Shown: positions 1 to 40,291 of the stretch, in pieces
Layout: each line of letters opens with the position of its first letter
Numbering within the stretch: the first letter of the stretch is position 1
Source of the DNA: an uncultured bacterium
Lineage (GTDB): Bacteria; Verrucomicrobiota; Verrucomicrobiia; Limisphaerales; J093
DNA: 64,000 bases
Reading direction: 5' to 3'
Assembly: GCA_963735925.1 (NCBI GenBank)
Contig: CAVTMT010000003.1
Coordinates: 1,767,463-1,831,462 of the forward strand
Translations under genes and position numbers: made by a program
Notes under the pieces: generated by a model
Told to the model about the DNA's origin: nothing
Database searches by the model: none
Seen by the model: the letters and a program-made list of their open reading frames with translations, nothing else

Positions 1-2
1 GG

Positions 3-89
3 ATCGAGGCCAAGGTCCTGCTCCGGGCGGTGAAACTCTATCTTGCCAGGCGTCTGGATGTGTACTGGGGAGTAGTGAAGGAAGTCTGA
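3..89 (+). CDS. possible 3' end of a CDS entering from upstream of the window (…IEAKVLLRAVKLYLARRLDVYWGVVKEV*)
   Basis: Frame 3 is open from the window edge to TGA at 87-89. Only 29 codons are visible and no family is recognisable. Confidence 0.2.
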   Translation: MEAKVLLRAVKLYLARRLDVYWGVVKEV

Positions 90-159
90 GCCGCAGTGCC
101 GGCGGCTGCAAACCTGACGCGCCGTGCTCGAAACGCCCGGTCCGGTCCGCCGGGGGAAC

Positions 160-870
160 TCAACCCGGGCGGGCGTTGCCGCGTTGGCGCGCCCGCCAGG
201 CCACCCCTGCCCCCACCAACGCCAACACACCCAAGCTGGCACCGGGCTCCGGCACAGGGGCGTAAGTCAGATCATCGAGGTTGAACGAACTGCCGTTGGG
301 CAGGACTCCCGAGCCGATGGTGGCGGTGGAAAACGGCGTGTCGGAAATGAGCCCGGCAAAAAAGAAGGTGCCAAAATCGTAAACGGGGCCGCCGGTGGTG
401 GCCGTCCCGACCGGTGTCGCCACCCTCAGGTCGCCGGTGGTGGGCGTCAGGTTCGCGTTGAAGAACACGCCGAAGGCTCGAACGGGCGTCGCAAACGTGA
501 TCGTGAGCTGGTCGCGATCGAAGAAGTAATCCGGGGTCAGGGGATCATTGTCCCGGTCCAGGGCGAGGCTCTGGGCGTCGAGCTTGTTGTAGGTGTTATC
601 GATTCGGCCCAGCGTGCCGGCGGGGAAACTGTCGTATCGGATGCCGTTGAGCACCGTCCCGGCCACAATGGTGGAGTTCGGCCCATAGGACTCGTAATTC
701 ACGACGACCTTGGGCATTGACCCGAGATCGGTACCGAAGGCCGCCGAACTTGTGTACAGGAGAACCGCCGCAGAGGCAGGCGCCGTCGCGATCAAGAGTG
801 CCGGGAAGATTCCGGCGAGCCGGGAGAAGCCCTGGCCGGGCAGTGGCGGGGTCGTGCGGTTGCTTTTCAT
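160..870 (-). CDS. PEP-CTERM sorting-domain secreted protein
   Basis: N-terminal signal peptide (MKSNRTTPPLPGQGFSRLAGIFPALLIATAPASA). The C-terminus has VPEPGASLGVLALVGAGVAWRARQRGN, i.e. a PEP motif, a TM helix and an Arg cluster, which is the PEP-CTERM exosortase signal. The body is Gly/Thr/Asn-rich. Confidence 0.8.
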   Translation of the reverse strand: MKSNRTTPPLPGQGFSRLAGIFPALLIATAPASAAVLLYTSSAAFGTDLGSMPKVVVNYESYGPNSTIVAGTVLNGIRYDSFPAGTLGRIDNTYNKLDAQSLALDRDNDPLTPDYFFDRDQLTITFATPVRAFGVFFNANLTPTTGDLRVATPVGTATTGGPVYDFGTFFFAGLISDTPFSTATIGSGVLPNGSSFNLDDLTYAPVPEPGASLGVLALVGAGVAWRARQRGNARPG

Positions 871-1028
871 GGGAAATTCGACTTACACCATTCACCCTAC
901 GTGATGGCATTGAGTACTCCGGATGGCCCGATCTGTCAACCAGCCTGTCCGCCCTGTCCGCCCGTGTCAGCCGGTATTGGGCCGCCGGTCTGGCTCGCGT
1001 CGGGCCGAAAGCCGCGGGTACGACAGGT

Positions 1029-1049
1029 CCGGAAACGGGCCGTTTTCGG
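1029..1049. promoter_or_regulatory. 8-bp-stem inverted repeat (CCGGAAAC-GGGCC-GTTTTCGG) in the divergent promoter region between the PEP-CTERM gene and the first glycosidase
   Basis: Near-perfect palindrome read directly in the 216-bp divergent intergenic region (one G·T position). No T-tract follows it, so an operator is more likely than a terminator. Confidence 0.25.
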
Positions 1050-1086
1050 TCTTGCGAGGGGGGAAAGCGGTTTCTAAGTTGCGCAG

Positions 1087-2301
1087 ATGACGCGTCCACC
1101 GCCGCTCCTGCGTGCCGCAGCCACCAGGCGCTGGGTCGCCTTCGCCACCCTCACGCTGGGCGTTTGGGTCCTCGCGACGGGAGTTCTGGCCGGGCCGGTC
1201 GGCGGCATCAGCTACACCAACGTCCATGTGGCCAGAGTGCCATGGTCGATCCACATCGTGAGATTCGACCGCCAGGATCCGACGTTCCAGCTCCATTCGG
1301 CGCACGCGGAAGGGAAGGCCGTGGGGTTGGACTCGCTGGTGGCGCAAGTCCGGCGACTCGATCCCAGACTCGGCGTGCCAATGGCCGCGATTAACGGCGA
1401 CTTTTACCAGCGCGACCGGGCGTATGCGGGCGACCCGCGCGGACTGCAGATCGTGGACGGAGAGTTGATCAGTGCCCCCGCGGGGGGCGTCGCGTTCTGG
1501 GTCGGTCGGAACGGAAGACCCAACATCGCGAACGTCGCGCCGCGGTTCCAGATTGTCTGGCCGGACAACACGACGAGCCCCTTCGAGCTCAACCGGGAGC
1601 GGCCCGTGGACGGGGCCGTGCTCTACACGCCGGCGATCGGCGAATCCACGCGCACCGGCAGCGGACGCGAGTTGATTCTCGAATCCGTCCCCGGCGCGGT
1701 CTGGCTTCCGCTTCGCATCGGAGAAACCTACCCGGCCCGCGTCCAAGTGGTGCGGGACCAGGGCGACACGCCCCTGACGCCCGACACGCTGGTGCTCTCG
1801 ATCGGCCCCGGGCTCCTGGCGACTCTACCCCGAATTGCCGTCGGAGCCGAGCTGCAAATCCGAACCGCCTGCCTGCCGGACCTGCGCGGAGCGACCACGG
1901 CCCTGGGCGGCGGACCGGTCCTGGTCCGACACGGGCGCCGGCAGCAGATCGAACCGCCCTCGCTGGATTCGTATGCCTCCAGTTCCATGCTCGAACGCCA
2001 CCCGCGCGGCGCCCTCGGCTGGAACGACCGGCAGTTCTTTCTCGTGGAAGTGGACGGCCGTCAGCCCGGTCTGTCGGTCGGCATGACCTTGGAGGAATTG
2101 GCGGCCTATCTCACGGAACTGGGGTGCGAGGAAGCGATGAATCTCGACGGCGGCGGCTCGGCAACCCTCTGGTTCGAAGGCCAGGTGCGGAACCGGCCTT
2201 GCGACGGCCAGGACCGCCCGATCGCGAACTCGTTGATCGTGGTCCGGAATGACGGCGCGCACGCACCGACCCCGACCCGCGCCGGACAGGCGGCCAGATG
2301 A
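1087..2301 (+). CDS. phosphodiester glycosidase family protein (NAGPA / 'uncovering enzyme'-like domain), secreted
   Basis: N-terminal TM/signal (WVAFATLTLGVWVLATGVLA). Family motifs AAINGDFY and NLDGGGSATLWFEG. It is a paralog of the next gene. Confidence 0.8.
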   Translation: MTRPPPLLRAAATRRWVAFATLTLGVWVLATGVLAGPVGGISYTNVHVARVPWSIHIVRFDRQDPTFQLHSAHAEGKAVGLDSLVAQVRRLDPRLGVPMAAINGDFYQRDRAYAGDPRGLQIVDGELISAPAGGVAFWVGRNGRPNIANVAPRFQIVWPDNTTSPFELNRERPVDGAVLYTPAIGESTRTGSGRELILESVPGAVWLPLRIGETYPARVQVVRDQGDTPLTPDTLVLSIGPGLLATLPRIAVGAELQIRTACLPDLRGATTALGGGPVLVRHGRRQQIEPPSLDSYASSSMLERHPRGALGWNDRQFFLVEVDGRQPGLSVGMTLEELAAYLTELGCEEAMNLDGGGSATLWFEGQVRNRPCDGQDRPIANSLIVVRNDGAHAPTPTRAGQAAR

Positions 2302-2561
2302 GACGAGTGGCCCTCCAAGCCTCTGCCGGTGACGGAACGCGGGTTGCCGAGTGCCGGTGGATTCCGGTGACCACGTCGAAACCGCATCCGCGCCCGATCC
2401 CGGATCGCGCTCCGCGGCGGGCTGCCCATGGGCCTGACCGGGCCGAGCGGCCGCTCGACCCGGATGCCAGGCCGGCGCAGCAACGCCATCCTGCCGGGTT
2501 CAGAATAGGCGGGCACGTTCGACAGCGACGTGCGGCTTTCCTATCACCGACCGGATGCCCC

Positions 2562-3734
2562 GTGTGGACGGATGGACCCACTTCAACTCCGCGTCGCCGA
2601 GCCCGCCGGTCCAGCCGGTTTCCGGTTTGGGGCTGGTTATGGCTGTTGGTGGCGTTGACCGCCACGGCGACGGCCGCGCCGAAGCGTGGCAACGGCCGCG
2701 GGTTCGACTACCTAAACGACAAGGATCCCAGCGTTCCGTGGTCGGTTCACGTGCTCAAGGTCGATCGCTCCCGCCGCGACTTCGAACTCTGCACCACGCT
2801 GGGGCGGTCGAACACATTCGGGATGGCGCTCGTGTCCGAGCAGGTGAAGGCATTGCCACCGGACAGCGGAGAGCCGATCGCCGCTGTGAACGGCGATTTC
2901 TACGGCAACAGCGAGCATTACCAGGGCCGTCCGCGCGATCTCCAAATCTCCCGCGGCGAACTGGTCACCAACCCGGGCGGTCACACCTGTTTCTGGATCG
3001 ATGCCGCCGGGAACCCCGGCATGACCAACCTCGAATCGCGGTTCCGTGTCGTCTGGCCGGACGGCAGCGCCACCCCATTCGACCTCAACGAAGAGCGCGG
3101 CCCGGAGGCCGCCGTGCTTTACACCGGGGTGGTCGGCCCTTCGACGCGGACTGCCGGCGGTTGGGAATTCGTGCTTGAACGCGGCACGAACTCCGCCTGG
3201 TTGCCGCTTCAAGTCGGACGAACCTACTCGGCCCGCGTCCGTGCGGTTCGTCACGAAGGCGACAGCCCGCTTGGCCCGGAAGTCGTGGTGCTCTCCATCG
3301 GCAGCGGCCTGACTTCCCGGCTTCCGCCGGTGAGCGTCGGAACCCTGCTCCAGCTCGTCACCGAGACCGTTCCCGACCTTGCCGGCGCCAAGATGGCGAT
3401 CGGCGGCGGCCCCCGGTTGGTGGAGAACGGCAAGCCGATGCAGTGGTCCGGCCTGCAGTTCCGCCATCCGCGCACGGCCGTCGGCTGGAACCAGGAGACG
3501 CTCTTCCTCGTCGAAGTGGACGGGCGGCAAAGCAGTCTGTCTTTGGGCATGAGCTTTCCCGAACTGGCGGCCTACCTGGTCAAGCTCGGCTGCGACCAGG
3601 CCATGAACCTGGATGGCGGCGGTTCCTCGACCTTTTGGATGCTGGGCGGAGTGGTCAACAGTCCTTCCGAAGGCCACGAACGACCCGCCGCCAACGCGCT
3701 GGTCCTGGTGGAGAAGCGGGCGCCCAAGAACTGA
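2562..3734 (+). CDS. phosphodiester glycosidase family protein (NAGPA-like), tandem paralog
   Basis: Motifs AAVNGDFYGN and MNLDGGGSSTFWMLGG, about 50 % identical to the upstream paralog over the core. The start is set at in-frame GTG 2562, which gives a signal peptide (RRRARRSSRFPVWGWLWLLVALTATATAAP). The ORF is open from 2298, so the start is uncertain. Confidence 0.72.
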   Translation: MWTDGPTSTPRRRARRSSRFPVWGWLWLLVALTATATAAPKRGNGRGFDYLNDKDPSVPWSVHVLKVDRSRRDFELCTTLGRSNTFGMALVSEQVKALPPDSGEPIAAVNGDFYGNSEHYQGRPRDLQISRGELVTNPGGHTCFWIDAAGNPGMTNLESRFRVVWPDGSATPFDLNEERGPEAAVLYTGVVGPSTRTAGGWEFVLERGTNSAWLPLQVGRTYSARVRAVRHEGDSPLGPEVVVLSIGSGLTSRLPPVSVGTLLQLVTETVPDLAGAKMAIGGGPRLVENGKPMQWSGLQFRHPRTAVGWNQETLFLVEVDGRQSSLSLGMSFPELAAYLVKLGCDQAMNLDGGGSSTFWMLGGVVNSPSEGHERPAANALVLVEKRAPKN

Positions 3735-3754
3735 TCCGGCCGCGGCCGGTCCCG

Positions 3755-5413
3755 ATGCGGTTCCCCTTGCCAAAATGCTGCGCCGGGCCGCCATTCCGTT
3801 GCGGCGCGGCCCTGTTCGCCGCCGGCCTCCTGGTCGGCTGGACGGCCCCGCCGCCGCTCCGTTCCCCTGCCTTGCCGCTTCGTCCAAACCTGCCCGGAGC
3901 AGAACTGTTCATGGACGGGGCGGTTCAGGACATCGTCATCGAGATCGCACCGCGCGAGGTCGAGTCGCTTCGCCAAAGGCCGCGGGAATATGTGTCCGTC
4001 ACGCTCCGCAGCGGGCCGCTGACGCTGCCCCGCGTGGCGCTGCGGCTCAAAGGATCGAGCGGCAGCTTTCGCGCCGTGGACGACCAACCGGCCCTGACGG
4101 TGGACTTTTCGCGATTCAGTGCCGGCCAGCGGTTCCACGGACTGCGGCGCCTTTACCTCAACAACTCGGTCGAGGACCCGGGCTACCTCAACGAGCAGCT
4201 CGGGGCCGGACTGTTCCACGAGGCCGGATTGCCCGCGCCGCGCATCAGTCACGCGCGGGTGCACTTGAACGGGCGGAATCTGGGGCTCTACGTGCTCAAA
4301 GAAGGATTCACCGAGGACTTCCTCGGCGGCAGCTTTCAGCGGACGGATGGGAACCTTTACGACAACGACTCGGGCCATGACGTGGACCAGGTCATGCACC
4401 GCAATTTGGGCCGCCATTCCCGGGGCGACCAGTCCGATGTCATCGCTTTGGCCGAGGCCGCGCGTGAGCCTGATTTCGACCAGCGCTGGCAACGGCTGGG
4501 ACAGGTGCTCGATCGCGAGCGCTTCATCACGTTCATGGCCTTGGAAGTCCTCCTGGTTCACCGGGACGGCTACTGCCTGGCACGAAATAATTTCCGCATT
4601 TACCACGACCCGGACAGCGATCGGCTGGTCTTCCTCCCTGACGGGATGGACCAGTTGCTGGGCCTGGCGAGCTTTCCTTGGAAACCGCGCTTCGCGGGCA
4701 TCGTGGCCGCGAGCCTGATGGAAACACCCGCCGGCCGGGAACAGTACGGCGAACGTTTTGCCAGCCTGCTCCGCACGGTCTTTCGACCGGAACCCCTCGG
4801 CCATCGCGTCGATCAGTGGGTGAGCGCATTGCGCCCCAACCTGTCTGCGGACGAGTTCCGCGGCTTGAACCGCGAGGCCGGCGCGCTCAAGCAACGCATC
4901 GCCGACCGACACGCCGATCTGCAGCGGCAACTGAATGCGCCCGAACCCGGACCGCTCGAGTTCACGAACGGAGCCGCCCGGGTCACTGGTTGGTTCAAAG
5001 TGGACGAGCCGGCTGGTGGCCGGTTGGACCGCGCGAGTGCTCCGGACGGCGTGCCTTCGCTGCATTTCGTGGCCGGCCCGGTGACGCGCGCATCGTGGCG
5101 GGCGAAGGTGTGGCTCCGCCCCGGGCGGTACCGCTTCGTCGGCCGCGGCACCGCGGCCGGGGTGACCCCCCTGCCCTTCGGTCGATTCCAGGGCGCCGGC
5201 CTGCGCGTCGGCGGCCGCACCCGCACCGAAACGGGGCTGCTCGGAACTTCGCACTGGCAACCGTTGGCAACGGAGTTTGAGGTCGTCGCGGCCCATGAGG
5301 AAATCGAGTTGCTCTGCGAACTGTCCGCCAACGGCGGCGAGTTCTGGGTGGACCTGGATTCGCTTCAGGTCGTGGAAGTCCAGGCGACCGCGCCCTCGAA
5401 ACCGGCCGGGTAA
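3755..5413 (+). CDS. CotH family protein (spore-coat protein H-like atypical kinase fold), secreted
   Basis: ATG at 3755 gives a signal peptide (MRFPLPKCCAGPPFRCGAALFAAGLLVGW). CotH-like blocks are present (LRLKGSSGSFR, ALTVDF, RRLYLNNSVEDPGYLNEQLG, NLYDND…). The upstream 312 nt of the ORF are treated as non-coding. Confidence 0.78.
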   Translation: MRFPLPKCCAGPPFRCGAALFAAGLLVGWTAPPPLRSPALPLRPNLPGAELFMDGAVQDIVIEIAPREVESLRQRPREYVSVTLRSGPLTLPRVALRLKGSSGSFRAVDDQPALTVDFSRFSAGQRFHGLRRLYLNNSVEDPGYLNEQLGAGLFHEAGLPAPRISHARVHLNGRNLGLYVLKEGFTEDFLGGSFQRTDGNLYDNDSGHDVDQVMHRNLGRHSRGDQSDVIALAEAAREPDFDQRWQRLGQVLDRERFITFMALEVLLVHRDGYCLARNNFRIYHDPDSDRLVFLPDGMDQLLGLASFPWKPRFAGIVAASLMETPAGREQYGERFASLLRTVFRPEPLGHRVDQWVSALRPNLSADEFRGLNREAGALKQRIADRHADLQRQLNAPEPGPLEFTNGAARVTGWFKVDEPAGGRLDRASAPDGVPSLHFVAGPVTRASWRAKVWLRPGRYRFVGRGTAAGVTPLPFGRFQGAGLRVGGRTRTETGLLGTSHWQPLATEFEVVAAHEEIELLCELSANGGEFWVDLDSLQVVEVQATAPSKPAG

Positions 5414-5863
5414 CCAACGCGCAGAACCCGGTTGCGTTCCCCCGGCCCGGAGCGGGCTTGACCGGGCGCCCACTGGATCGAGTCTGGCGCCAGGCCGCGT
5501 TTGCCGGCACGGTGGGGTTGCGGGTGGATGCTCTTCACCGACGGAGCCGGTGCCCGTAAACCGTTGATCGTCTGTTGGCTGCTTGCGGGCCGACCGGGAG
5601 ACCCGGTTTGCAGGAGTGCGCCGCCGCCGCGGTGGCGGCGCAAGGCGGTGCGACGGCGCCGCCACCACCGATACCGGACATCACCCGACCTCGGGGGCTC
5701 GCCCGGGGTCTGCCTTGTCAGGGCGGCATGGCGCGTGCTAAGCAAAGGCTGTCGTGCAGCCAAAACGGAATTCGCTCTCCTGGTCTCCAGAACCTCATCG
5801 CCGCGCCGGGCGGGATGCCGGCGGCCCAGACCGGAGGCGGAGTGGGGGATCCAGTTGCCTGTT

Positions 5864-6526
5864 ATGAAACGAATTCGAAGGTGGTCGGCCTTTACGTTGA
5901 TCGAACTGCTGGTCGTCATCGCCATCATCGCCATTCTCGCGGGATTGCTGCTTCCCGCGCTGGCACGCGCCAAGGCGCAGGCCAAAAACGTCAACTGCAT
6001 CAACAACGTCCGGCAGACCAGCCTCGGTTTCCGCCTCTGGGCGCACGACAATGCCGACAAGTATCCCTGGAACCTGAGCGTCGCGCAGGGGGGCAGCGGC
6101 GGTTCGGCCGACTGGACCGACAACTTCCGCCTGTGCTCGAACGAGTTCGCCACGCCGCTGATCCTCCATTGCCCGGCGGACCGCGCGACCAAGCCGGGCA
6201 CCAACTGGACCTTTCTCGCAGCCGACACCAGTGTGAGCTATTTCATCAGCACGAACTCCAGCGAGAACCTCCCGGAGTCGATCCTGCTGGGCGACCGAAA
6301 CGTCATCGGCGGCGGCGGCGGGCTCGATCCGTCCTGGAGTGTGTTCCTGGGCAGTTCGATCGACGCCGCGTGGGACAAGGATATCCACGTTCGCGCGGGC
6401 AATCTGGGCATGGCCGACGGCAGCACACGCTCCTGCACGACCCCGGCCTTGCGCACGTTGATCAGCGCCGAACTGGCGGCCGGGTTGACCAACGTGGTGT
6501 TCTCCAAACCGCGCGGCATTTTTTGA
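5864..6526 (+). CDS. DUF1559 (H-X9-DG) protein with prepilin-type N-terminal cleavage/methylation domain
   Basis: [51 protein letters not shown] is the canonical PVC pseudopilin-like N-terminus. The C-terminal motif is [13 protein letters not shown]. The ATG at 5864 was confirmed in sequence. Confidence 0.85.
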
Positions 6527-6791
6527 CGACCTCACGCACCCAGGTCCGAGGCGCAAGGCCCTCAACCGACGCGTTCCCGCCCATGAACAGACGGCCAGAC
6601 GTTTGAACCGAAAACCGCAGATGCACGCCAATGAACGCAGCGAAGACCGACGCAGTAAGCATTTCGAGTGACCGGACCGGGTGCATCCCCCGGGTGAACC
6701 CACCCGCGACGGCGAACCGTTTCCTCTCTGCGTTGATCCGGGCCCATCTGCGGGCCAACTGCGCGATTTGGGTTGAACCGTTAACCCCGAC

Positions 6792-7454
6792 GTGAGGAGC
6801 AGCAAACTCATCAACGCAGTCGCCGGCCTCGCCATCGTCGGGTCCGCGGCCTGGCTCTGGGTCGCCGTGAACGGGTGGCCGCCCAGTCCTGAAGCCAGGC
6901 CGGCCGAAGCCTCCGGTTGGGGGATGGCGAAGGAAGCCCTGCGGGCGCTCAAGCCCGGCGGCCGGCTCGTCGTGATCGTCCGCGACACCGAGGCCTTCAA
7001 GCACCCCGAAACCGACCTCCAGTTGCGCAGCTTCGAGCAGGCCGTACACCAGGCCGGAGTCACCATCGGCGCCACCCGGACGCTGCAAGTCGATCCGTTG
7101 CGCGCACTGGAAGTACCCGGCGGCGATTTCTACGAGTTGATCCGCCGTGCGCCGACTGGAAGCGTGATCGTGTCGTTCATGGGACCGCCGATCTTGACCG
7201 CGGATCAGCGCGCGCGATTGAGCGATCCCAAACCTCCCATCATCGCTTTCTGCCCCGGCGCCTTGCCCCAGCAGATCGATCTCCGCGTGCTCTTCGCCGA
7301 GGGCCTGTTGCGCGCGGCTGTGATCAGCCGCGGGACGCCCGCTCGCCCCGCCACCCCGCCGAAGGACTCCAACGGCTGGTTCGACCGGTATTACCGCATC
7401 ATCACGGCCGCCGACGTCGCCAACCTGTACGAGCCGACCAGCGGCTCGCCTTGA
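6792..7454 (+). CDS. hypothetical membrane-anchored protein
   Basis: N-terminal TM (LINAVAGLAIVGSAAWLWVAV) and high GC3 coding bias. It sits 10 nt upstream of the next gene and no family is recognised. Confidence 0.55.
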   Translation: MRSSKLINAVAGLAIVGSAAWLWVAVNGWPPSPEARPAEASGWGMAKEALRALKPGGRLVVIVRDTEAFKHPETDLQLRSFEQAVHQAGVTIGATRTLQVDPLRALEVPGGDFYELIRRAPTGSVIVSFMGPPILTADQRARLSDPKPPIIAFCPGALPQQIDLRVLFAEGLLRAAVISRGTPARPATPPKDSNGWFDRYYRIITAADVANLYEPTSGSP

Positions 7455-7464
7455 ATCCGGCCCC

Positions 7465-8169
7465 ATGACCTCCCGCCACCCAGCGCGCAGTTGTCCGCCA
7501 CCCACCCGGCAGGGCGGGTTCACGTTGACCGACTTGCTGGCGACGCTCGCTGTCCTGTCGGTGGTCGGCGTGCTGATCTTCACTCCCCTGCTGGCCGCGA
7601 AGCGAAAGGCGCGGCTGGCGCAATGCACCGCCAACCTCCAACGGGTCGGCCAGGCGATCCTGACGTACGCCGCCGAGAACAACCAGACCCTGCCCGATGT
7701 CTTCCCCGATCAACGCGGCGACTTGTGGTGGTGGTACAAGGAGAAGGTCAAGGCTTACGCGGGTTTGACTGGCGCCTCCTCGGCCGCCGACCAGGTGTTT
7801 GCCTGCCCCGACGACCGCGGGTACACGGACCCCAAGCCGTTTCATGCGAACGCGCGGTTCGACTTCACGAGCTACGTGCTCAATGCCGTCAATCTGCCCG
7901 GCATGCCGAACCTCGCCGGCTGGCGGGTGTCCGCTGTGAATCAGCCGGGTCGCACGCTGCTGGTGATGGAGTGGACCGCCCACGCTCCGCTTTCCTGGCA
8001 TCGGAGCCGCACCGGCAAACGCAACCTGCCCTTCTATCGCGATGCCGAAAGCGTCGTCGGTTTCGTGGACGGACACGTGAGTTTCACCAGGATCTACTAT
8101 GACGGGTTCGACGCCGCCTTCACGCGCGACCCCATCGCCGGCTATGACTACAAGTACAGTGGAAACTAG
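7465..8169 (+). CDS. prepilin-type N-terminal methylation domain protein, DUF1559-like
   Basis: GFTLTDLLATLAVLSVVGVLI follows a cleavage-site Gly, with Asp in place of Glu at position +5. The C-terminus carries FVDGHVSF (H-X9-DG-like). Confidence 0.7.
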   Translation: MTSRHPARSCPPPTRQGGFTLTDLLATLAVLSVVGVLIFTPLLAAKRKARLAQCTANLQRVGQAILTYAAENNQTLPDVFPDQRGDLWWWYKEKVKAYAGLTGASSAADQVFACPDDRGYTDPKPFHANARFDFTSYVLNAVNLPGMPNLAGWRVSAVNQPGRTLLVMEWTAHAPLSWHRSRTGKRNLPFYRDAESVVGFVDGHVSFTRIYYDGFDAAFTRDPIAGYDYKYSGN

Positions 8170-10192
8170 ACATCCCGCCGCCACCCGGATCGGCGCCCGA
8201 TCGCTCGCCCGATGGCGGTTTGGCTCAAGCGGTCTGTCTCTGGCGCGGACCTTACCCGGTCTGGCCGCGTGTGCGCTGGGTGCGCTATCGCTGGTGGCCG
8301 GCCCGCTGCCCGGTCCGTGGGTGCCTTTGTTCAAAGGAATCGAGCATGCGGTCGGCACAAATCAACCGGGCGTGGCCGGCAATTTCCCCCGGCTGCAGGT
8401 GGCCCACTGCATCCGCGTGGACCTGACCGATCCCGACGTTCGGCTCTTCACGACTCCTGCGGCCGCCAGCTACGATGTCGAGTCACGCGAAACCCTGACG
8501 CAGGCAGTGCCGGGCTTTCTCAGGCAACACCGCCTCCAGGTGGCCTGTGACGCGAATTACTACAGCGCCAACCCAGGAGGCGCGGATCCGACCAAAGAGG
8601 GCGTGTCATGCGACGTCTTTGGCCTGCAGGTTTCCACGGGAACGGTGGTTTCGCCGCAGACGACGGCCGACATCGGTGGGGATCCCCGCTTCGCGGCCCT
8701 GCTCTTCACGACCAACAATCAGCCCGCCTTCAACTTTGTGAACCGTCCGCCGGGTACCAACCTTGCGGGCATCTACACCGCCGTCACCGGCTACTACCCG
8801 ATCGTCTCCAACGGGGTGAACATCGGCGCGGCCACCATCAAGAGCTATCCGGACAACACGATTCATCAGGTCCAGCCGCGCACCGTCTTCGGTCTCTCCC
8901 AGGACAATCACTATCTGCTCCTCATGACCGTGGATGGGCGGCAGTCCGACTACAGCGATGGCGCCTTGGACACCGAAACCGCCTACTGGATGCTGCAGTT
9001 TGGCGCCTGGAACGCGATCAACATGGACGGCGGCGGCTCCACGGCGCTTTACATGGCGGACAGCACCGGGCAGCCCGTGGCCGTGAATCATTCCAGTTAC
9101 CTGGCGGCCTATGGACGGGAACGCTATGTCGGTTCCCATTTCGGCGTGTGGGCCAAACCCCTGCCCGGCTTCATCAACGAGGTCGCGGTGGCCTCCGATG
9201 ACACCTCAGCGACGGTCACCTGGAGCACGACCGCTCCCGCCACAACCCAAGTCGCCTACGGGCCGACGCCGGACCAGGGCCTCTCAACCACGCTCCAGAC
9301 GGACTTGGTGACGAATCACATCGCCGTCCTGGCGAACCTGACCCCCGCAACCGACTACTATTTGCAGGCCGTCTCCACCCGCGGAACCGACCGGTACGCG
9401 TCTTCGAACCTCACGTTCACGACCACCAATTACGTCTCGGTGAATCCGGTGTTTGACCTCACCCATACCTGGACCTACACGACGGCGGATCTCGATGGAA
9501 CGCCGTGGACCAGCCCCGCGTACGACGATTCGGGCTGGGATGGCGCGGGCCCCGGCCTGCTCTGGGTGGATGTCCGAGCCACGGGCCCGAACCCCGAGGT
9601 CCAGCCGCGGAACACCCCGATGCCGGCGGACCCAAACAACAATGGCTATCCGTACATCACCTATTATTTCCGGACGCACTTCCAGCATACCAACGGTCTG
9701 GCGGGAGTGGTCCTGAACTTCACCAACTATCTTGACGATGGCGCCGTCTTTTACCTGAACGGGGTCGAAGTTTATCGGCTACTGATGGAACCAGCCCCGG
9801 CCGCAATTGCGAACCAGACGCTCGCCGCGGGTTACGGATGCTCCGGTGACGCCACCTGCCCGCTCGCCTTCTCCATCTCTGGGGACGCCGTCACGAATCT
9901 GGTCGCCGGCGACAACGTGCTCGCCGTCGAGGTCCACAATTACAACGCCCGCAGCCCCGACATAACGTTTGGGGTCGAGCTCTCGGTCACTGAACCGGTG
10001 GTCATCAGCCCCACGCTCCAGATCGCAGCGGCGCCGGAATCCTTCACGCTCACGTGGAACCGCAGCGGTTTCACCCTGCAGACCGCAACCGCTCCGGCCG
10101 GCCCGTGGACGGATGTGCCCGGCCCCGTGGTGACCAGTCCGTATTCGGCTGCCGCCACGGGCACGGCCCAGTTCTTCCGGCTCCGGAAGTAA
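8144..10192 (+). CDS. multidomain secreted phosphodiester glycosidase (NAGPA-like) with Fn3-like and beta-sandwich C-terminal domains
   Basis: NMDGGGSTALYMADSTG motif. There is an Fn3-like block (ATVTWSTTAPATTQVAYGPTP…DYYLQAVS) and a signal peptide (SLARWRFGSSGLSLARTLPGLAACALGALSLVAG). The start is set at ATG 8144, which overlaps the upstream gene by 26 nt; ATG 8099 is the alternative. Confidence 0.78.
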   Translation: MTTSTVETRHPAATRIGARSLARWRFGSSGLSLARTLPGLAACALGALSLVAGPLPGPWVPLFKGIEHAVGTNQPGVAGNFPRLQVAHCIRVDLTDPDVRLFTTPAAASYDVESRETLTQAVPGFLRQHRLQVACDANYYSANPGGADPTKEGVSCDVFGLQVSTGTVVSPQTTADIGGDPRFAALLFTTNNQPAFNFVNRPPGTNLAGIYTAVTGYYPIVSNGVNIGAATIKSYPDNTIHQVQPRTVFGLSQDNHYLLLMTVDGRQSDYSDGALDTETAYWMLQFGAWNAINMDGGGSTALYMADSTGQPVAVNHSSYLAAYGRERYVGSHFGVWAKPLPGFINEVAVASDDTSATVTWSTTAPATTQVAYGPTPDQGLSTTLQTDLVTNHIAVLANLTPATDYYLQAVSTRGTDRYASSNLTFTTTNYVSVNPVFDLTHTWTYTTADLDGTPWTSPAYDDSGWDGAGPGLLWVDVRATGPNPEVQPRNTPMPADPNNNGYPYITYYFRTHFQHTNGLAGVVLNFTNYLDDGAVFYLNGVEVYRLLMEPAPAAIANQTLAAGYGCSGDATCPLAFSISGDAVTNLVAGDNVLAVEVHNYNARSPDITFGVELSVTEPVVISPTLQIAAAPESFTLTWNRSGFTLQTATAPAGPWTDVPGPVVTSPYSAAATGTAQFFRLRK

Positions 10193-10600
10193 TCCGCATC
10201 GAACGGACAACCTGCCCGTTCGATGCGGCAGCCGGTCCACGCCTCGAGCAGGCTTTGAACCGCTTTGGCCCGCGGGTTCCCGCACGCCGCGCTTGTCGTC
10301 GGGGCAGTGGCCGACCTTCGGATCGGCGCCGGCACAGCGGCGCCCTACCGGGTGGAGGTCGAGCTGCGGCTCGTCCAATTGGGTGCCAAGGCAGCCGCCG
10401 GGCCAGTTGCCCGACGGCACCGACCGGCGGCCCGTGCCGTCCCGTCTCGATTTCGAGCTTCGCATCGGGAGGAGTCGGCCAGTCCGGGTGTCACCGTCAC
10501 TGACCTTCCCCGGGGCTCGCCCGTTGGCAGAGCCCTCCCAAGCAAAAGGGGCGCGCGAAATCGCGCGCCCCGTGAACGAGGATTGATGGGCCGGCTCGCC

Positions 10601-13600
10601 TCAGAGCTTGACCCGATAGAACTTGGCGCCGCCGGCGGGAGTCGCCGTGTAACTCGGCGCGCTGGCGCCGGTCACCGTGGACCATGGCCCGGTAACGGCA
10701 TCCGCCGATTCCAGCGTGCCGTTCGACCACTCGATGACCACGTTGCTACCGGACTTCTGAATCTGCATGGTCACCTGTGTCGGGGCCGTGGTGTCGAAAC
10801 TGCGCCCGTAATCCTGGCCGACGATGTAGATCGCCTGCGCGTCGTAGTCGGTGAGCACGCTGCGCCAGATGCCGAGGTCGTCGATCTGCGCCGTCCCCGG
10901 TTCGGCATAGCTTCCCCCGGCCTGGCCGATGGTCCACGTCAGCGCGGTGCGAAGATCCCAACTGACGGCGGTCGCGATCGAGGTGGCGTTCACCTTGACG
11001 CCATCCAGGTAGGTGGTGCCGTCACCCGTGCGGTCGAAGATATGCACCAGGTGATGCCAGGTGCCGTCATTGAGCGTGTTTTGCACGGGGTCGTAAAGCC
11101 CGACCCCCGGCCAAGGTTGCGAGGTGATCGAGTCGTTCAGCCCCCAGGACCAGCCGCCCTGGTTGTACGACGGCGCGAGCGTGACGCCCGGGCCGCCCAT
11201 CGAACCCGTGTTGTTGGCCAGGAAGGGCAGGTCGCCCGGGCTGCCGGTGAACTTGATCCAGAAGGCCACGGAGAAGCTCTGACCCGGCCCGAAGTCCAGG
11301 TCCGACGGCGTGCCCAGCGACACGTAATTCGCCGCGGAGACGCTTCCCCCCTCGACCACGGTGCTGTATTGCAGGGCACCGGTGCCGATCTTCCCGGTCA
11401 CGATTTGCGGCGAGCCTTCGGCCGTGCCGTTGTTATTGCGGCCCGAACTGTCCAGATAATTGCCGTCGAACTTGAGGTGCAGCACGAGGTTGTCCGCCAG
11501 GTTCAGGTAACTCGGGACCGGCTTGACCGTGAGCGTCACGGGCGTGGTCGAAACCTTGGTTGCCCCTTGGGTCACGAACAACTGGTAACTGCCCGTGTCC
11601 GCGACGGTCGCGCTCGGGAACACCAGGCTGCTGCGAATCGCCCCGGGCAGATCCTGACCATCCTTCTGCCACTGGTAGGTCAACGGCAGCGTGCCGCTCG
11701 CCTTGGCGCTCAGGGTATAGCTGGACCCGGCCAGGATGGTCTGTCCCTTCGGCTGCTGCGCGATCTGAACCGGCGTGGTCACGTAGGTCCCCTTCACGCC
11801 GGCATCGTGCAGCTTCGTGATCTCCGCCTGCGACAAGGAGCGGTCATAGATCACCACGTCGTCGATCGCGCCTTTGAAGAAGCGAGACCCATTGCCGTCG
11901 GTGCCGAAACGCAGCGTGCCATCGAACTCCTCGGCGTTGTGATTGACGGTGTTGACCCCGTACTGCATCCCGAAGCCCTGACCGTCGTCGAGGTAGATCG
12001 TGGCCTGATCGGGTTCGACCACGAGCGCAACGAAGTTCCAGTTTCCGTCCGCCGGGTAGAGCCCGGAAGCCCAGCCGTAGGTGTTGGCGGCGTCATTCCA
12101 GTGGTACCCCAACTGGCCGCCGGTCTGGTAATCCAGACCCGCGACCGTGTTGCCGCCACGGCTGAACACGATCCCGTCGTAATCGTCGGGAGTCCCGTTC
12201 GGCTTGATCCAGGCCACGATCGTCAGATTCGCCTTGTTCAGGTTCAGCGGCGGAACGTCCACCTCGCCGCCGCCGCCGTTGAAGTCATACGCGGTGTTGC
12301 CCGCGTCGAAGCCCTGGAAGGCCGTCGGCACCGGACCGGCCACCCCCAGGGTGACGCCGGCATTGGCCACGCCGTCGCGACCGCCCCAGTAATCGTAGGC
12401 CGTGGTGCCCTCGGTTTCGTCCAGGCGCCAGTACCCAATCGGCCCCAGGTCGGCCGCCGCCGCGGCCAGCTTGGTGGGCGTCTTCAGCGTCAGCGTGGCG
12501 GTCACATTCGTGCTGCCGTACTGGTTGGAGACGACCACGGTGTAATCGCCGGCGTCGGCCGGTTGCAGATCGCTCACCACCAAAGTCGGTGCGGTGGCCC
12601 CGGCGATGGCGTCGGCCCCGTGTTTCCATTGATACGCGATCGGCTGGCTGCCCAGGGCGGCTGTCACGAACTGCACCGTGCCATTCAAGAACCGGACGGC
12701 CGAGGAGGGCACCTTCGTGAGGACCGGGGGCGAGGTGACGACTTCGAGGTGGTTCGCGGCGCTGGTCAGCGTCTTTCCCCCGGTGGTGGCTTCCACCGAA
12801 TAGTCTCCGCTGTCCGCCGTGGTCACGTTCGCGAGTTGCAGCGTCGCGGCGGTCTCGCCCGCGATGGGCGTTCCGCCTTTGAGCCATCGATACGTGACCG
12901 GCGCGGGGCCGGCCACGGTCGTCTGGAAGGTGACGTTCATGCCTTCGTAAACCGGGTCCGCGGTCCGCGTGAGCGACAAGATTCCCGGGATGGCGGCGTT
13001 GTAGAGCGAAGCGATTTGGTCGTAGGTCAAGGTTTTGTCGAACATCGCGAATTCATCGATGCTGCCGCGGAAGACGCGCGTCGTCTGGTAGTTATCCCAC
13101 CCGATCTCGAGGCTGGTGCCGCTGAAGTCGTGGGGAATATTCGCGAACACGTTCGTGGCGGCCTGCAGTCCGGCGGCGCTGCCCATGAAGAGGACGCCGT
13201 TGTCCGGCGAGATGGTGACGGCCACGAACGTCCAGGCCTGGTCGGGCGGCACGAAGCCGGGGTTGAAGTTGTAGGCACTGCCCTGGTCCTCCCAGTTGTA
13301 GCTCAGGCCCAGGCCGTCGTCCTGAAAGCCGAGCCCGGTGGCCTTGACTTCCGGGGCGCTCACCTTGCGGTTGTGCATGATCGCCGCGCGCGCCGGCTGC
13401 TTGCCGTCCCGCTTGATCCAGCAGACTATCGTGGCGGTGTCGGTGTTCAGGTTGAGGCCCGGAATGCTCACCGAACCGTTGGTGCCGTTGAAGCCGGCCG
13501 CGTTGTTCGTGCTCTCGAAACCGGTAACCGCCGGGCTCTGCGGCCCCGGGATCGCCGACTGGGTCCCGGCGAGGAACAGGCCGTCCGCCGCCGTCCCGTA

Positions 13601-14530
13601 GCTGCCGCTGTTCACCGCCACCGGCAGCGCGAGCGACGGCTCGCCCAGCCGCAGGTAAACCGGCGGGTTCTTCTGCAGGATCAGGTCGGCATAGGCCGTG
13701 GTGCGCGCGGCATTGGTGCCGTTGGCGTAATGCGACTGCACCTCCGCCGGCGTCAACGCGGTGGTGTAGATGGCGACCTCATCCACCAAGCCGTTGTAGT
13801 CCCAGCCGGTGTACCCGCGGTCGCCGAGAATCAAGGGCGCACCCGTATTGCGGAGCATCGGGAATTGCGCGGGCGGGACGTCCGAGGCCACCTCGTTCCC
13901 GTTCAAATACAGCTTCACCGTTGCACCGTCATACACGGCTACCACGTGTTGCCAGACCCCGGGGGTGACCGTGGTCGCGGCGGTGAGGGTCGTGCCGTAG
14001 TAGGTCGCGCCGTCGGAATGGTCGTACCCGAGAATGAACTGCCAGTCGGTGCCATTGTGCCGCAGGAGCCAGCCGCTGCGATCGTCCCCGTTCGCGGGGT
14101 TCTGCCCGTTGACCATCGCGCTCGCGGCCGTGTGGTTGCCGGAGGCGTCGTTGGCCGGGTTGGCCCAGAGTTCGACCGTGAACGGCCCGGCCGGATTGTA
14201 GTCCGGCGAATAGGGCACCACCACCTGGGCTCCCGTGCTGCCGTCGATGAACACCGACGTGTCCGCATCGCCCGCGATGGCGCCGGGCCGACTGCGCGCG
14301 GCGGCCATCGCCTGATACTCGCCGTTGAAAGCGGCGCCCAACGTGCCGCGGTTCACCGCCGGCACTTCGGCCGGCACCGGGTTGGTATTGCTGAACCGAT
14401 AGTAGGCAACCGGGTTCAACGACTGCACCGCGGCGGCATAGTCGGCCATCGCCGGCGGCGGGCTGAACACCGCCGCGCCGAGCAGTCCGGCCAGCAGGGT
14501 CGAGGAGCCAAGGGTTTGGATTTTCATCAT
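10601..14530 (-). CDS. giant secreted protein with about 4 LamG/concanavalin-A-like (Laminin_G_3) and about 3 Ig-like domains (1309 aa)
   Basis: Signal peptide MMKIQTLGSSTLLAGLLGAAVFSPPPAMA. The start is ATGATG at 14530/14527, confirmed on the reverse strand. LamG_3 blocks recur (FTVELWANP…WQHVVAVYDGATVKLYLNGNEV; NWNFVALVVEPDQATIYLDDG; GTWHHLVHIFDRTGDGTTYLDG). Ig-like motifs are present (GDYSVEATTGG, GDYTVVVSNQYGS, GSYQLFVTQGA). The upstream 45 codons of the ORF are treated as non-coding. Confidence 0.85.
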   Translation of the reverse strand: MMKIQTLGSSTLLAGLLGAAVFSPPPAMADYAAAVQSLNPVAYYRFSNTNPVPAEVPAVNRGTLGAAFNGEYQAMAAARSRPGAIAGDADTSVFIDGSTGAQVVVPYSPDYNPAGPFTVELWANPANDASGNHTAASAMVNGQNPANGDDRSGWLLRHNGTDWQFILGYDHSDGATYYGTTLTAATTVTPGVWQHVVAVYDGATVKLYLNGNEVASDVPPAQFPMLRNTGAPLILGDRGYTGWDYNGLVDEVAIYTTALTPAEVQSHYANGTNAARTTAYADLILQKNPPVYLRLGEPSLALPVAVNSGSYGTAADGLFLAGTQSAIPGPQSPAVTGFESTNNAAGFNGTNGSVSIPGLNLNTDTATIVCWIKRDGKQPARAAIMHNRKVSAPEVKATGLGFQDDGLGLSYNWEDQGSAYNFNPGFVPPDQAWTFVAVTISPDNGVLFMGSAAGLQAATNVFANIPHDFSGTSLEIGWDNYQTTRVFRGSIDEFAMFDKTLTYDQIASLYNAAIPGILSLTRTADPVYEGMNVTFQTTVAGPAPVTYRWLKGGTPIAGETAATLQLANVTTADSGDYSVEATTGGKTLTSAANHLEVVTSPPVLTKVPSSAVRFLNGTVQFVTAALGSQPIAYQWKHGADAIAGATAPTLVVSDLQPADAGDYTVVVSNQYGSTNVTATLTLKTPTKLAAAAADLGPIGYWRLDETEGTTAYDYWGGRDGVANAGVTLGVAGPVPTAFQGFDAGNTAYDFNGGGGEVDVPPLNLNKANLTIVAWIKPNGTPDDYDGIVFSRGGNTVAGLDYQTGGQLGYHWNDAANTYGWASGLYPADGNWNFVALVVEPDQATIYLDDGQGFGMQYGVNTVNHNAEEFDGTLRFGTDGNGSRFFKGAIDDVVIYDRSLSQAEITKLHDAGVKGTYVTTPVQIAQQPKGQTILAGSSYTLSAKASGTLPLTYQWQKDGQDLPGAIRSSLVFPSATVADTGSYQLFVTQGATKVSTTPVTLTVKPVPSYLNLADNLVLHLKFDGNYLDSSGRNNNGTAEGSPQIVTGKIGTGALQYSTVVEGGSVSAANYVSLGTPSDLDFGPGQSFSVAFWIKFTGSPGDLPFLANNTGSMGGPGVTLAPSYNQGGWSWGLNDSITSQPWPGVGLYDPVQNTLNDGTWHHLVHIFDRTGDGTTYLDGVKVNATSIATAVSWDLRTALTWTIGQAGGSYAEPGTAQIDDLGIWRSVLTDYDAQAIYIVGQDYGRSFDTTAPTQVTMQIQKSGSNVVIEWSNGTLESADAVTGPWSTVTGASAPSYTATPAGGAKFYRVKL

Positions 14531-14802
14531 GGACTGTTGAGTTTCTGTTCTGGTTTGTATTCCGAGGATCACGCTGGCGTTCGCGCCGCCGGCCGCCGGC
14601 CTGCGCCCGAGAACTTCCCGAAATCCGTTGCCCGGTCTGGGCCGTCGTCGCCCCGCCACCATCATCCCGCCCGGCCGCCGAAGCCCTCGCCCCGGCGCCT
14701 CACGCAGTCAAGCTACGCTTCCCGCCAACTGTGGGGCAACCCCGAAAACCACCCGGCGTGGGACGCGGTTGCTTTGCGCGGGCGCTGCCGCCATCCTCCG
14801 GC

Positions 14803-15621
14803 ATGGCCGTTGCCGCCCCCAGCCTGCTGCTGCTCATCCCGGCCTACAATGAGGAGCAGCGGATCGGACCGGTGTTGCGCGAGTACGCGCAGCACTTTCG
14901 GCAGCATTACGCCGGCGCGGCGCGCATCGTGGTCATTCTCAATGGCTGCCGCGACAACACCCTGGGCGTCGTCCAGTCCGTCGCGCTGGATTTCCCGGAG
15001 ATTTCGCACCGCAACTTTCCCGGCCGGATCGGCAAAGGCGGCGCCTTGATCGAGGGCCTCAAGCTCGCGCCGGAGGCCGACCTGATCGGTTATGTGGATG
15101 CCGACGGCGCCACCGGGCCGGCCGCCTTGCTGGGATTGGTCAGCCAGTTGCCGGGCGCCGATTGCGTCATCGGCTCCCGGTGGCTGCCGGGGTCGGTGTT
15201 GCACCAGAGCCAGCCGTGGACACGACGCCTGTTCAGCCGCGCCTTCCACGCGATTGTCGAAGCGCTGTTCTGGATGCACATCCGCGACACGCAATGCCCG
15301 GCCAAACTGCTGCGCCGCGCCGCGGTGGAGCGGGTCCACGACGCGCTGCAAATCGCCGACCTGGCCTTCGACGTGAACCTCCTCTACGTGCTCAAGCGAC
15401 AGGGATTCACCGTGCGCGAAGTGCCGATCGAGTGGACCGACAAGCTGGGCTCGACGGTCACGCGGAGCCTCGTGCGCTCCTCGCTCGTGATGTTCCTCTC
15501 GGTGGTCCGGCTGCGATTGGTGTACTCGCCGCTCTATCAGTGGCTGGGCCCCTTGCGGCCGCTCGAACTCTGGCTCTACCGCAAACTGGGTTCCCCTCCG
15601 CCGCGAGATACGAGGAATTGA
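14803..15621 (+). CDS. family 2 glycosyltransferase, DPM1-like (polyprenyl-phosphate mannose/glucose synthase-like)
   Basis: LLLIPAYNEEQRIGPVLREYAQHF, VVILNGCRDNT, DADGATGP and GSRWLPGS. The ATG at 14803 was confirmed. Confidence 0.8.
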   Translation: MAVAAPSLLLLIPAYNEEQRIGPVLREYAQHFRQHYAGAARIVVILNGCRDNTLGVVQSVALDFPEISHRNFPGRIGKGGALIEGLKLAPEADLIGYVDADGATGPAALLGLVSQLPGADCVIGSRWLPGSVLHQSQPWTRRLFSRAFHAIVEALFWMHIRDTQCPAKLLRRAAVERVHDALQIADLAFDVNLLYVLKRQGFTVREVPIEWTDKLGSTVTRSLVRSSLVMFLSVVRLRLVYSPLYQWLGPLRPLELWLYRKLGSPPPRDTRN

Positions 15622-15645
15622 ACGCCGCCGGCCAACGACCCGCGC

Positions 15646-38126: not shown

Positions 38127-38129
38127 GGT

Positions 38130-40049: not shown

Positions 40050-40106
40050 AATCGTGGCCGACGCCGTCGGCGAACGGAGTCGGGCGGGCCGGCGGACCGG
40101 GCCGGC

Positions 40107-40277
40107 CTAAAGTTTCTCCTCGAGTTTGTCCTCGACCTTGGCCCAGCGGACATCGTCCGCCCGGACTGAATCGTCCCCCCGGTTCCAATTGCGCCAGCTA
40201 TAAATGACGCAGGCCAGAGCGCTCACGAGGCAGAGCACGTAAGCCAGCCACACCCACGGATCAGGAATTCCCAACAT
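40107..40277 (-). CDS. small single-TM membrane protein (56 aa) preceding the SSS transporters; possible SSS accessory subunit (DUF3311/DUF4212-like)
   Basis: MLGIPDPWVWLAYVLCLVSALACVIYSWRNWNRGDD…. An AAAGGA Shine-Dalgarno-like motif lies 9 nt upstream of the ATG at 40277. The family assignment is tentative. Confidence 0.5.
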   Translation of the reverse strand: MLGIPDPWVWLAYVLCLVSALACVIYSWRNWNRGDDSVRADDVRWAKVEDKLEEKL

Positions 40278-40291
40278 CACAGAGTCCTTTC

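Follow-up and report, generated by a model that had tools for sequence, protein, structure and literature searches.

A conserved seven-gene operon of Verrucomicrobiota linking three NAGPA-family phosphodiester glycosidases to a CotH kinase-fold protein

The present analysis concerns a stretch of 64,000 nucleotides (the window) from an uncultured bacterium of the Limisphaerales (Verrucomicrobiota; assembly GCA_963735925.1, contig CAVTMT010000003.1), and in it a seven-gene operon on the plus strand, positions 1087-10192, which is conserved across one order-level clade of Verrucomicrobiota (Pedosphaerales / Limisphaerales). The operon encodes, in order, two members of the NAGPA family of phosphodiester glycosidases (NAGPA1 and NAGPA2), a protein of the CotH family, a prepilin-type protein (pil1), a protein of an unnamed family (hyp220), a prepilin-like protein (pil2) and a third NAGPA-family protein (NAGPA3). 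The data below directly establish which genes are present, how their linkage is conserved, the protein folds and the conservation of motifs. The protein families are known, and the seven-gene arrangement is undescribed in the searched literature.

Layout and conserved linkage of the operon

The window has a G+C content of 66%, and long spurious open reading frames (ORFs) are therefore plentiful; genes were called by third-position GC (GC3), and Pfam domain calls were scored against curated gathering cut-offs. By these means the operon was resolved into NAGPA1 (1087-2301, 404 aa, GC3 0.83), NAGPA2 (2562-3734, 390 aa), CotH (3755-5413, 552 aa), pil1 (5864-6526, 220 aa), hyp220 (6792-7454, 220 aa), pil2 (7465-8169, 234 aa) and NAGPA3 (8144-10192, with a start at 8099 or 8144), all co-oriented and tightly spaced, CotH beginning 21 bp past NAGPA2 and pil2 11 bp past hyp220. 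The start of NAGPA2 is likely the GTG at 2562; an ATG at 2298 was rejected, as GC3 falls on the extension. The pil1 ORF opens at 5501, and its start was set at 5864 (M122) by the prepilin motif. The non-coding 450 bp between CotH and pil1 (5414-5863) form the longest such spacer in some 46 orthologous loci, the rest of which have 14 to 404 bp; this spacer matches no Rfam family, has no DNA or protein similarity to related loci, and possibly holds an internal promoter. A sigma-70 scan of window positions 1-16000 returned no promoter. Downstream of NAGPA3, a terminator scan called a hairpin on the minus strand at 10548-10571, with a perfect 10-bp GC stem (10 G-C pairs) and T-runs, which lies between NAGPA3 and a convergent gene and is likely the terminator that closes the operon; its stem is palindromic and could therefore work in both directions.

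The linkage of these genes recurs in related genomes. More than 1000 CotH relatives are present in the public protein collection, the best 120 being 49-100% identical, and the few of these 120 that have an organism name belong to Verrucomicrobia or Limisphaerales. A scan of one genome per species yielded 266 confirmed CotH relatives, of which the best 80 loci were taken with 10-kb flanks and the window proteins mapped onto their ORFs; the synteny counts use stop-to-stop ORFs and profile matches in contigs of metagenome-assembled genomes (MAGs), a few bins of which are mislabelled. The colinear NAGPA1-NAGPA2-CotH-pil1-hyp220-pil2-NAGPA3 block is repeatedly seen in these 80 loci, and the closest locus (L001) encodes a CotH with 75% identity to the window protein. 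Well-flanked loci, in which CotH has 3 kb or more of upstream and 5 kb or more of downstream sequence, number 45; a NAGPA gene lies within 600 bp of CotH in 36 of them, the combination of an upstream NAGPA gene, CotH, pil1 and NAGPA3 is found in 29, and all seven families are present together in 17. Eight well-flanked loci have no NAGPA gene and are mostly lower-scoring CotH paralogues in CotH-CotH tandems. An earlier annotation made without database searches (the sequence-only reading) had considered that orthologous genes might prove scattered with no conserved linkage, which is not so given the 36 loci just described. It had also raised the question of recurrence in Verrucomicrobiota and Planctomycetota: the neighbourhood recurs in the former and does not extend to the latter. 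By taxonomy the CotH loci belong to Verrucomicrobiota (Pedosphaera / Limisphaerales / subdivision 3), again bar a few bins labelled otherwise, and those that bear the cluster come from soil, peat, groundwater, lakes and sludge.

A reverse test, in which the NAGPA1 profile was searched against metagenome contigs and loci with enough flank were graded by their relation to NAGPA1, gave an adjacent CotH gene at 11 of the 12 orthologue-grade loci, while the 4 intermediate and the 32 distant NAGPA loci had one such case each. The association thus belongs to this verrucomicrobial clade and not to NAGPA proteins at large. Several variants of the cluster exist, including a minimal NAGPA1-NAGPA2-CotH set without pilin-like genes (L005, L009, L012, L021, L025, L028 and L081-L086), sets with a single upstream NAGPA gene, and sets from which hyp220 and pil2 are absent. 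In six loci (L041, L053, L055, L058, L060 and L099) the half comprising pil, hyp220 and NAGPA3 is inverted but still adjoins the other, so that the cluster consists of two halves which are kept together by more than common descent, a structure that agrees with the position of the 450-bp spacer in the window. Further, NAGPA2 and CotH are fused in frame in one lineage, as a protein of 869 aa (P0090) that was independently assembled in 7 samples. All-against-all clustering of flanking ORFs found no further family in more than 8 of the 80 loci. It could be supposed that independent secreted hydrolases have come to adjoin one another by coincidence, as verrucomicrobial genomes are rich in NAGPA, CotH and prepilin-like paralogues; this is extremely improbable, however, in view of the inversions, the gene fusion, the restriction to one NAGPA clade, and a gene order kept over dozens of species whose proteins are only 40-75% identical. 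As the synteny is conserved, the clustering is not a product of chance; it is non-random.

Proteins of the operon

All three glycosidase genes are members of the NAGPA family, as the sequence-only reading had claimed, with Pfam scores of 115 bits (E = 4e-33), 117 bits (E = 2e-33) and 78 bits (E = 1e-21) for NAGPA1, NAGPA2 and NAGPA3, respectively, against a cut-off of 25. The NGDFY and DGGGS motifs and the signal peptides which it had noted on all three were likewise recovered: each protein has an NGDFY-like motif, an N-terminal hydrophobic signal-like segment and an (L/M)DGGGS loop (NLDGGGSAT, NLDGGGSST and NMDGGGSTA). Both motifs reach a conservation of at least 95% in the orthologue groups, which for DGGGS comprise 43 NAGPA1, 42 NAGPA2 and 33 NAGPA3 orthologues, and the DGGGS loop is invariant in phosphodiester glycosidases, where it binds the sugar-phosphate and is essential for catalysis (2026 structural study, PMC13474241). 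NAGPA1, the domain of which contains an insertion of ~150 aa, has its best Protein Data Bank (PDB) matches in 6OZD and 3OHG (DUF2233); the PDB matches of the NAGPA proteins also include vertebrate NAGPA (6PKU and 6PKY, E = 1e-5 to 1e-3), with an identity of the window proteins to human NAGPA below 20%, too low for a reliable placement of E226 and T227, by which the human enzyme recognises the N-acetyl group. Over the full length, NAGPA1 and NAGPA2 share 48% identity; they stem from an old duplication retained throughout the clade, and NAGPA3 has ~33% identity to them over the catalytic core.

NAGPA3 is the most elaborate of the three. Next to the catalytic domain it has an FN3 domain of the Pur_ac_phosph_N type (28 bits, E = 3e-6, just below the cut-off of 30), a further beta-sandwich region and a C-terminal module of ~70 aa, the C-terminal region having no Pfam match even at E 0.1. 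In the 120 listed orthologues, which at 49-69% identity show the strongest conservation within the cluster, the pairing of NAGPA with the Pur_ac_phosph_N-type FN3 domain is found in nearly all, PhoD_N or fn3 is added in a few, and a Metallophos domain is present in none. As a separate observation, the ~70-aa C-terminal module, which ends in F[FY]R[LV], is common to NAGPA3 (9968-10192) and to a giant LamG/Ig protein encoded downstream (10601-10810 on the minus strand), with 32% identity and a pairwise E of 2e-9 between proteins that are otherwise unrelated; judged from sequence, it could serve the sorting or anchoring of secreted verrucomicrobial proteins more generally.

The CotH family is widespread in non-sporulating bacteria, where many of its members are secreted; to our knowledge, the only CotH activity tested so far is the phosphorylation of spore-coat proteins in Bacillus. 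The window protein at 3755-5413 belongs to this family, in agreement with the earlier claim, by Pfam (PF08757, 112 bits, E = 5e-32, cut-off 23.8) and by structure, as its AF2 model (pLDDT 84.8) matches the Bacillus cereus CotH kinase structures 5JDA/5JD9 with a Foldseek E of 1e-19 and a TM of 0.76-0.77. In the window CotH and in nearly all orthologues a signal-like hydrophobic segment lies ahead of a conserved LPGADLF, because of which the start was placed at 3755 and not at the database call M53; the same segment suggests that CotH is exported. Residues ~400-545, a C-terminal region with no Pfam match even at E 0.1, form a beta-sandwich like that of a carbohydrate-binding module (CBM), with Foldseek matches to CBM families 4, 16, 22, 35, 61 and 70. 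In the kinase-fold part, HRD271GY...RN278N279 aligns with FDGF..HN of B. cereus and varies little or not at all in the clade, Asp271 being the equivalent of the catalytic-loop residue D228 of B. subtilis (PMC7821199). The metal-binding Asp of the B. subtilis protein, D251, is found 23 residues past the catalytic Asp as the 'WD' of a WDxD motif (PMC7821199). At its alignment column the clade has Gly297 (motif P-H/D-G-M-D), whereas the WD is kept in more canonical CotH paralogues of related loci; Asp299, two residues further on, is invariant in the clade. The Gly297/Asp299 arrangement could represent either a relocated metal ligand or altered chemistry.

Thus the window CotH resembles the spore-coat CotH of Bacillus, which has CotB and CotG as substrates, in its Pfam family, its fold and the Asp and Asn of its catalytic loop, whereas the setting of a spore-coat kinase is not matched: the host is a non-sporulating, diderm verrucomicrobium, and the protein has a signal-like segment, an added CBM-like domain, Gly at the metal-Asp column and neighbours of a glycosidase family. 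CotB/CotG-like genes encoding Ser-rich repeat substrates are absent from the cluster. Bacillus CotH is a proven protein kinase (PMC7821199), and from this precedent, the conserved fold with its catalytic-loop residues and the constant presence of pilin-like partners, it might be proposed that the operon specifies an exported protein-kinase module, in which CotH would act as a Ser/Thr kinase on the pilin-like or other envelope proteins and the NAGPA enzymes on a separate glycan of the same structure. However, the pilin-like genes are missing from the minimal NAGPA1-NAGPA2-CotH clusters, no Ser-rich repeat substrate is at hand, a CBM-like domain stands in place of a protein-docking one, and the metal-Asp column is altered; in addition, CotH has a signal peptide and, as a matter of general knowledge, no ATP supply is known in the periplasm or outside the cell. 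Such a module is therefore very unlikely. Beyond the operon, CotH-CotH tandems without NAGPA occur in L065, L070, L074, L076 and L080, with ~40% identity to the window CotH, and several MAGs yielded two CotH loci. In one tandem CotH of L076, Asn replaces the catalytic-loop Asp, which makes this protein a likely pseudo-enzyme partner.

The gene for hyp220 (6792-7454) is the seventh conserved member of the operon and was unnamed in the sequence-only reading. Its product has no Pfam or NCBIfam match, and a profile search returned 904 representatives, the best 150 of which are mostly stand-alone proteins of ~220 aa or fragments. The predicted model (pLDDT 88.8) has a transmembrane helix followed by an alpha/beta domain that possibly folds like monosaccharide-binding proteins (periplasmic-binding-protein type I), so that hyp220 may be a membrane-anchored protein with a sugar-binding-protein fold. 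The two flanking pilin-like proteins had been described as DUF1559 proteins, of which the prepilin character stood for pil1 and the family label for neither: against DUF1559 (PF07596, SBP_bac_10), pil1 has no match at E up to 5, and pil2 scores 12.8 bits (E = 0.12), short of the cut-off of 23.3. Prepilin-type features are clear in pil1 (Pfam N_methyl E = 4e-5; NCBIfam TIGR02532 above cut-off), the N-terminal helix of which matches PilA and geopilin in the PDB at E = 5e-6. In pil2 a GFTLTDLL motif is seen by eye, with sub-threshold matches to N_methyl (E = 0.023) and GspG (E = 0.007) and a PDB pilin match at E = 0.2. Both proteins are strongly conserved in places: a 10-residue stretch of pil1 is at least 95% conserved in 46 orthologues, as are CPDDRGY, EWxAHxPxSWH and VDGH in the C-terminal part of pil2 in 31 orthologues, and an H-X9-DG-like motif is visible by eye at the C-terminus of pil1. 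Far from the cluster (47223-48071, minus strand) there is a third prepilin-type gene, in which the N_methyl motif is clear and the match to DUF1559 borderline; such genes are therefore scattered through this genome.

Neighbouring genes and the remainder of the window

In part of the clade the operon has acquired companions. A PstS-family homologue directly follows NAGPA3 in the eight loci of one sub-clade (L007, L019, L030, L033, L036, L039, L047 and L056), and seven of these eight also have a second CotH (CHB_HEX_C_1 + Fn3_assoc), mostly directly downstream and in L056 on the opposite strand. In four other loci (L046, L052, L058 and L060) a CotH of ~780 aa with a Lamin Tail Domain (LTD) stands beside the cluster; here a different CotH paralogue has been recruited independently. 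In ~6-8 loci the cluster is bordered by genes for an OmpR-type response regulator and a HAMP histidine kinase.

The immediate neighbours of the operon in the window do not travel with it, so that the coordinated system of the sequence-only reading holds for the linked NAGPA and CotH genes (36 of the 45 loci) and not for three further genes that it had included. The first of these, a PEP-CTERM protein (160-870, minus strand), was correctly recognised (22.4 bits, cut-off 20.7); no homologue lies beside the cluster in 160 related loci, and no exosortase was found in the 64-kb window. The LamG/Ig giant is indeed present, with four Laminin_G_3 and three Ig domains, although its coordinates had to be corrected to the minus strand (10601-14665), as the plus-strand ORF of 1594 aa at 10265-15049 is a shadow ORF with a GC3 of 0.62 versus 0.87 for the minus-strand gene; a giant-like ORF was seen near the cluster once only, as a weak match in L011. 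The third, a family 2 glycosyltransferase (GT2; 14803-15621, plus strand), matches Pfam Glycos_transf_2 at 48 bits, but the earlier DPM1-like label was not borne out, as NCBIfam matches to polyprenyl-phosphate sugar synthases are weak and far below their cut-offs; a homologue was never found beside the cluster in related loci. When the flanking ORFs were clustered, none of the families conserved with the operon was a glycosyltransferase, flippase, polymerase or sugar-1-phosphate transferase, and no GNPTAB/Stealth-like sugar-1-phosphate transferase was present among the window genes scanned or the top recurrent neighbour clusters.

The remaining genes of the window are housekeeping genes (ValRS, PurA, an ABC exporter, flotillin, two SSF transporters, GGT, an M1 peptidase and others), and Rfam found two tRNAs and nothing else. 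A URO-D-family (uroporphyrinogen decarboxylase-like) gene is broken into two ORFs that overlap and lie in different frames (15646-16053 and 16050-16715, plus strand), the N-terminal part covering profile positions 6-123 and the C-terminal part 141-342, and represents a frameshift, a pseudogene or an assembly error. The block at 36183-44313 (minus strand), with two tandem sodium:solute symporters, an ACT-domain protein, a PaaK-like AMP-binding enzyme and a TPP-dependent oxidoreductase, looks like one for aryl-acid or 2-oxoacid utilisation. A MerR-type regulator with B12-binding domains and a CarH-like architecture (58441-59385, plus strand) adjoins a fasciclin-domain protein and a polyketide-cyclase/START-like protein.

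A model of joint action and its alternatives

These data allow a model to be put forward for the function of the operon, in which export, substrate class, the order of steps and physiological purpose are what we infer. The model, which we hold as plausible while still short of probable, proposes that the operon encodes an exported envelope set that acts jointly on glycans containing sugar-1-phosphodiesters, and that foreign or necromass polymers are scavenged in this way for carbon and phosphorus; teichoic-acid linkage units, phosphomannans and sugar-phosphate capsules are candidate targets. All soluble proteins of the operon are probably exported, to judge from their predicted N-termini. The carbohydrate-binding-type modules, namely the CBM-like domain of CotH and the FN3 and beta-sandwich domains of NAGPA3, would dock the enzymes on the phosphoglycan. 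NAGPA enzymes cleave the C1-O bond of the sugar in sugar-1-phosphodiesters and leave a phosphomonoester. The three NAGPA proteins would thus cut the glycosidic C1-O bond, possibly with a breadth of specificity, freeing the capping sugar while the phosphomonoester stays on the polymer, and CotH may then carry out a phosphoryl-transfer step on the same substrate, with a donor that is possibly not ATP. Further, hyp220 and the two pilin-like proteins could hold this machinery at the envelope and may capture or sense the released sugar, and in the sub-clade that has it, the PstS-like binder may capture phosphate or a phosphorylated product.

Several lines of evidence point in this direction. Functional coupling of NAGPA and CotH is suggested by their adjacency, by a linkage that survives inversion, by the NAGPA2::CotH fusion and by the recruited CotH paralogues. 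That the enzymes are competent is suggested by the conserved DGGGS loops of all three NAGPA groups and, in CotH, by the conserved Asp271 and Asn278/Asn279 and the invariant Asp299. A glycan as the common target is suggested by the CBM-like domain of CotH, the putative sugar-binding fold of hyp220 and the Pur_ac_phosph_N/PhoD_N-type beta-sandwiches of NAGPA3 and its orthologues. Scavenging is favoured because no biosynthetic gene is linked to the cluster, because its accessory domains are those of secreted phosphoesterases, because a protein with a putative sugar-binding fold is a core part and because one sub-clade has gained a PstS-like binder; the two-component regulators that border the cluster in some loci point the same way. 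In published domain analyses, bacterial NAGPA domains have been described in fusions with phosphoesterases of the cell surface and with toxin or peptidase domains directed at the cell wall.

However, a number of observations weigh against the scavenging model. The phosphoryl-transfer step assigned to CotH is a guess, because CotH would be an exported kinase-fold enzyme with no obvious ATP supply; with Gly297 at the metal-Asp column, CotH could also be a pseudo-enzyme or a binding module. The conserved core contains no transporter or canonical phosphatase. The PstS-like gene is limited to 8 loci, and its product, a PBP_like_2 protein, scores 132 bits with TIGR02136, below the NCBIfam cut-off of 207. 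The flanking two-component systems were rejected as clear PhoBR homologues, as CusRS/CopRS-type models score higher, and k-mer enrichment in 46 regions upstream of the first NAGPA gene did not exceed that in shuffled controls and revealed no Pho-box-like signal. Signal peptides were assessed by eye and from hydropathy, and the searchable literature yields no substrate for a bacterial NAGPA-family protein. Finally, conservation in many habitats fits a housekeeping role in the envelope at least as well as it fits niche catabolism.

This last point leads to the main rival, in which the operon would serve the maturation of the cell's own envelope: on a surface polysaccharide, glycoprotein or pilus-like fibre of the producing cell, sugar-phosphate caps would be trimmed or 'uncovered' by the NAGPA enzymes, and CotH would add or move phosphate there, a view not far from that of the sequence-only reading. 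We regard this as unlikely, though deserving of serious consideration. The majority of the sampled members of an order-level clade have the operon, over a wide range of habitats, as would be expected of a housekeeping role, two strongly conserved pilin-like proteins are core members, and the eukaryotic NAGPA precedent is a maturation step; some sources even name NAGPA3 orthologues 'exopolysaccharide biosynthesis protein', which is a label only. However, the cluster is not accompanied by any conserved glycosyltransferase, Stealth/GNPTAB-like transferase, flippase or polymerase, its GT2 and PEP-CTERM neighbours in this window are unlinked to it elsewhere, and the putative sugar-binding-fold protein and the PstS-like addition resemble parts for uptake or sensing. 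The comparison with the eukaryotic mannose-6-phosphate pathway is likewise mixed, since both share PF09992, the DGGGS loop and the expected C1-O cleavage chemistry, whereas the operon belongs to a bacterial envelope and not the Golgi, has three paralogues in place of one and is without a sugar-1-phosphate transferase partner, and the pathway has no counterparts of its CotH, pilin-like and PBP-fold proteins.

The enzymes might instead be weapons. In this scenario, secreted proteins with glycan-binding modules would attack the walls of Gram-positive neighbours, for example at the GlcNAc-1-phosphate link between teichoic acid and peptidoglycan, and a published domain analysis does connect NAGPA with toxin domains directed at the cell wall (the NAGPA-TelC-NlpC/P60 toxins that have been proposed in Bacillota). 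However, the conserved core includes no toxin, immunity, secretion-system or lytic peptidase gene, and gene order and sequence are stable, without the rapid diversification typical of conflict systems; antagonism or predation is thus a decidedly remote prospect. A bolder form of the scavenging model holds that CotH is not a protein kinase but an ATP-independent, glycan-directed phosphoryl-transfer enzyme which acts on the phosphomonoesters exposed by NAGPA, so that these enzymes, with the pilin-like and sugar-binding-fold proteins, would make up a hitherto unrecognised 'uncover-and-harvest' pathway by which sugar-phosphodiester polymers such as teichoic-acid linkages or phosphomannans are processed outside the cell. 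This form is speculative, and we consider it quite unlikely.

Relatives of the scavenging model can be sought among known systems. Surface phosphoesterases of the ShfP/YvnB-like calcineurin type and of the PhoD type carry fused LTD, Ig, LamG, FN3 and in some cases NAGPA domains, and an action on teichoic acids and further phosphopolymers of the cell surface has been predicted or demonstrated for them. The operon resembles them in export, in the Pur_ac_phosph_N-type FN3, PhoD_N and NAGPA domains and in the LTD-bearing CotH of related loci, but the conserved cluster has no calcineurin-like or PhoD catalytic domain, and CotH occupies the position where a ShfP/PhoD-like phosphoesterase might be expected. 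Polysaccharide-utilisation clusters offer a second parallel, with paralogous exported enzymes that have CBMs, a solute-binding fold and occasional two-component regulators; unlike these, the operon has no SusC/SusD, conserved transporter or CAZy glycoside hydrolase, and has pilin-like and kinase-fold proteins in its core. No paper that treats CotH and a phosphodiester glycosidase together was found, which, as the searchable literature is incomplete, is absence of evidence only.

For bacterial NAGPA proteins (DUF2233) we know of a solved structure and of no established substrate, and for CotH proteins outside spore-formers we know of no tested activity. The operon couples these two orphan families by gene order, by a fusion and by the repeated recruitment of CotH paralogues, and places them among binding parts related to carbohydrate and phosphate; it thereby narrows the search for the activities of both to sugar-phosphate glycans and a small set of proteins. 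While it overturns nothing, it provides a concrete lead on the role of exported CotH outside spore-formers. If the glycan-directed reading of CotH were true, it would give a first function to the secreted CotH class in non-sporulating bacteria, and if scavenging were true, the operon would bear on the recycling of organic phosphorus from cell-wall polymers by the abundant Verrucomicrobia of soil and freshwater.

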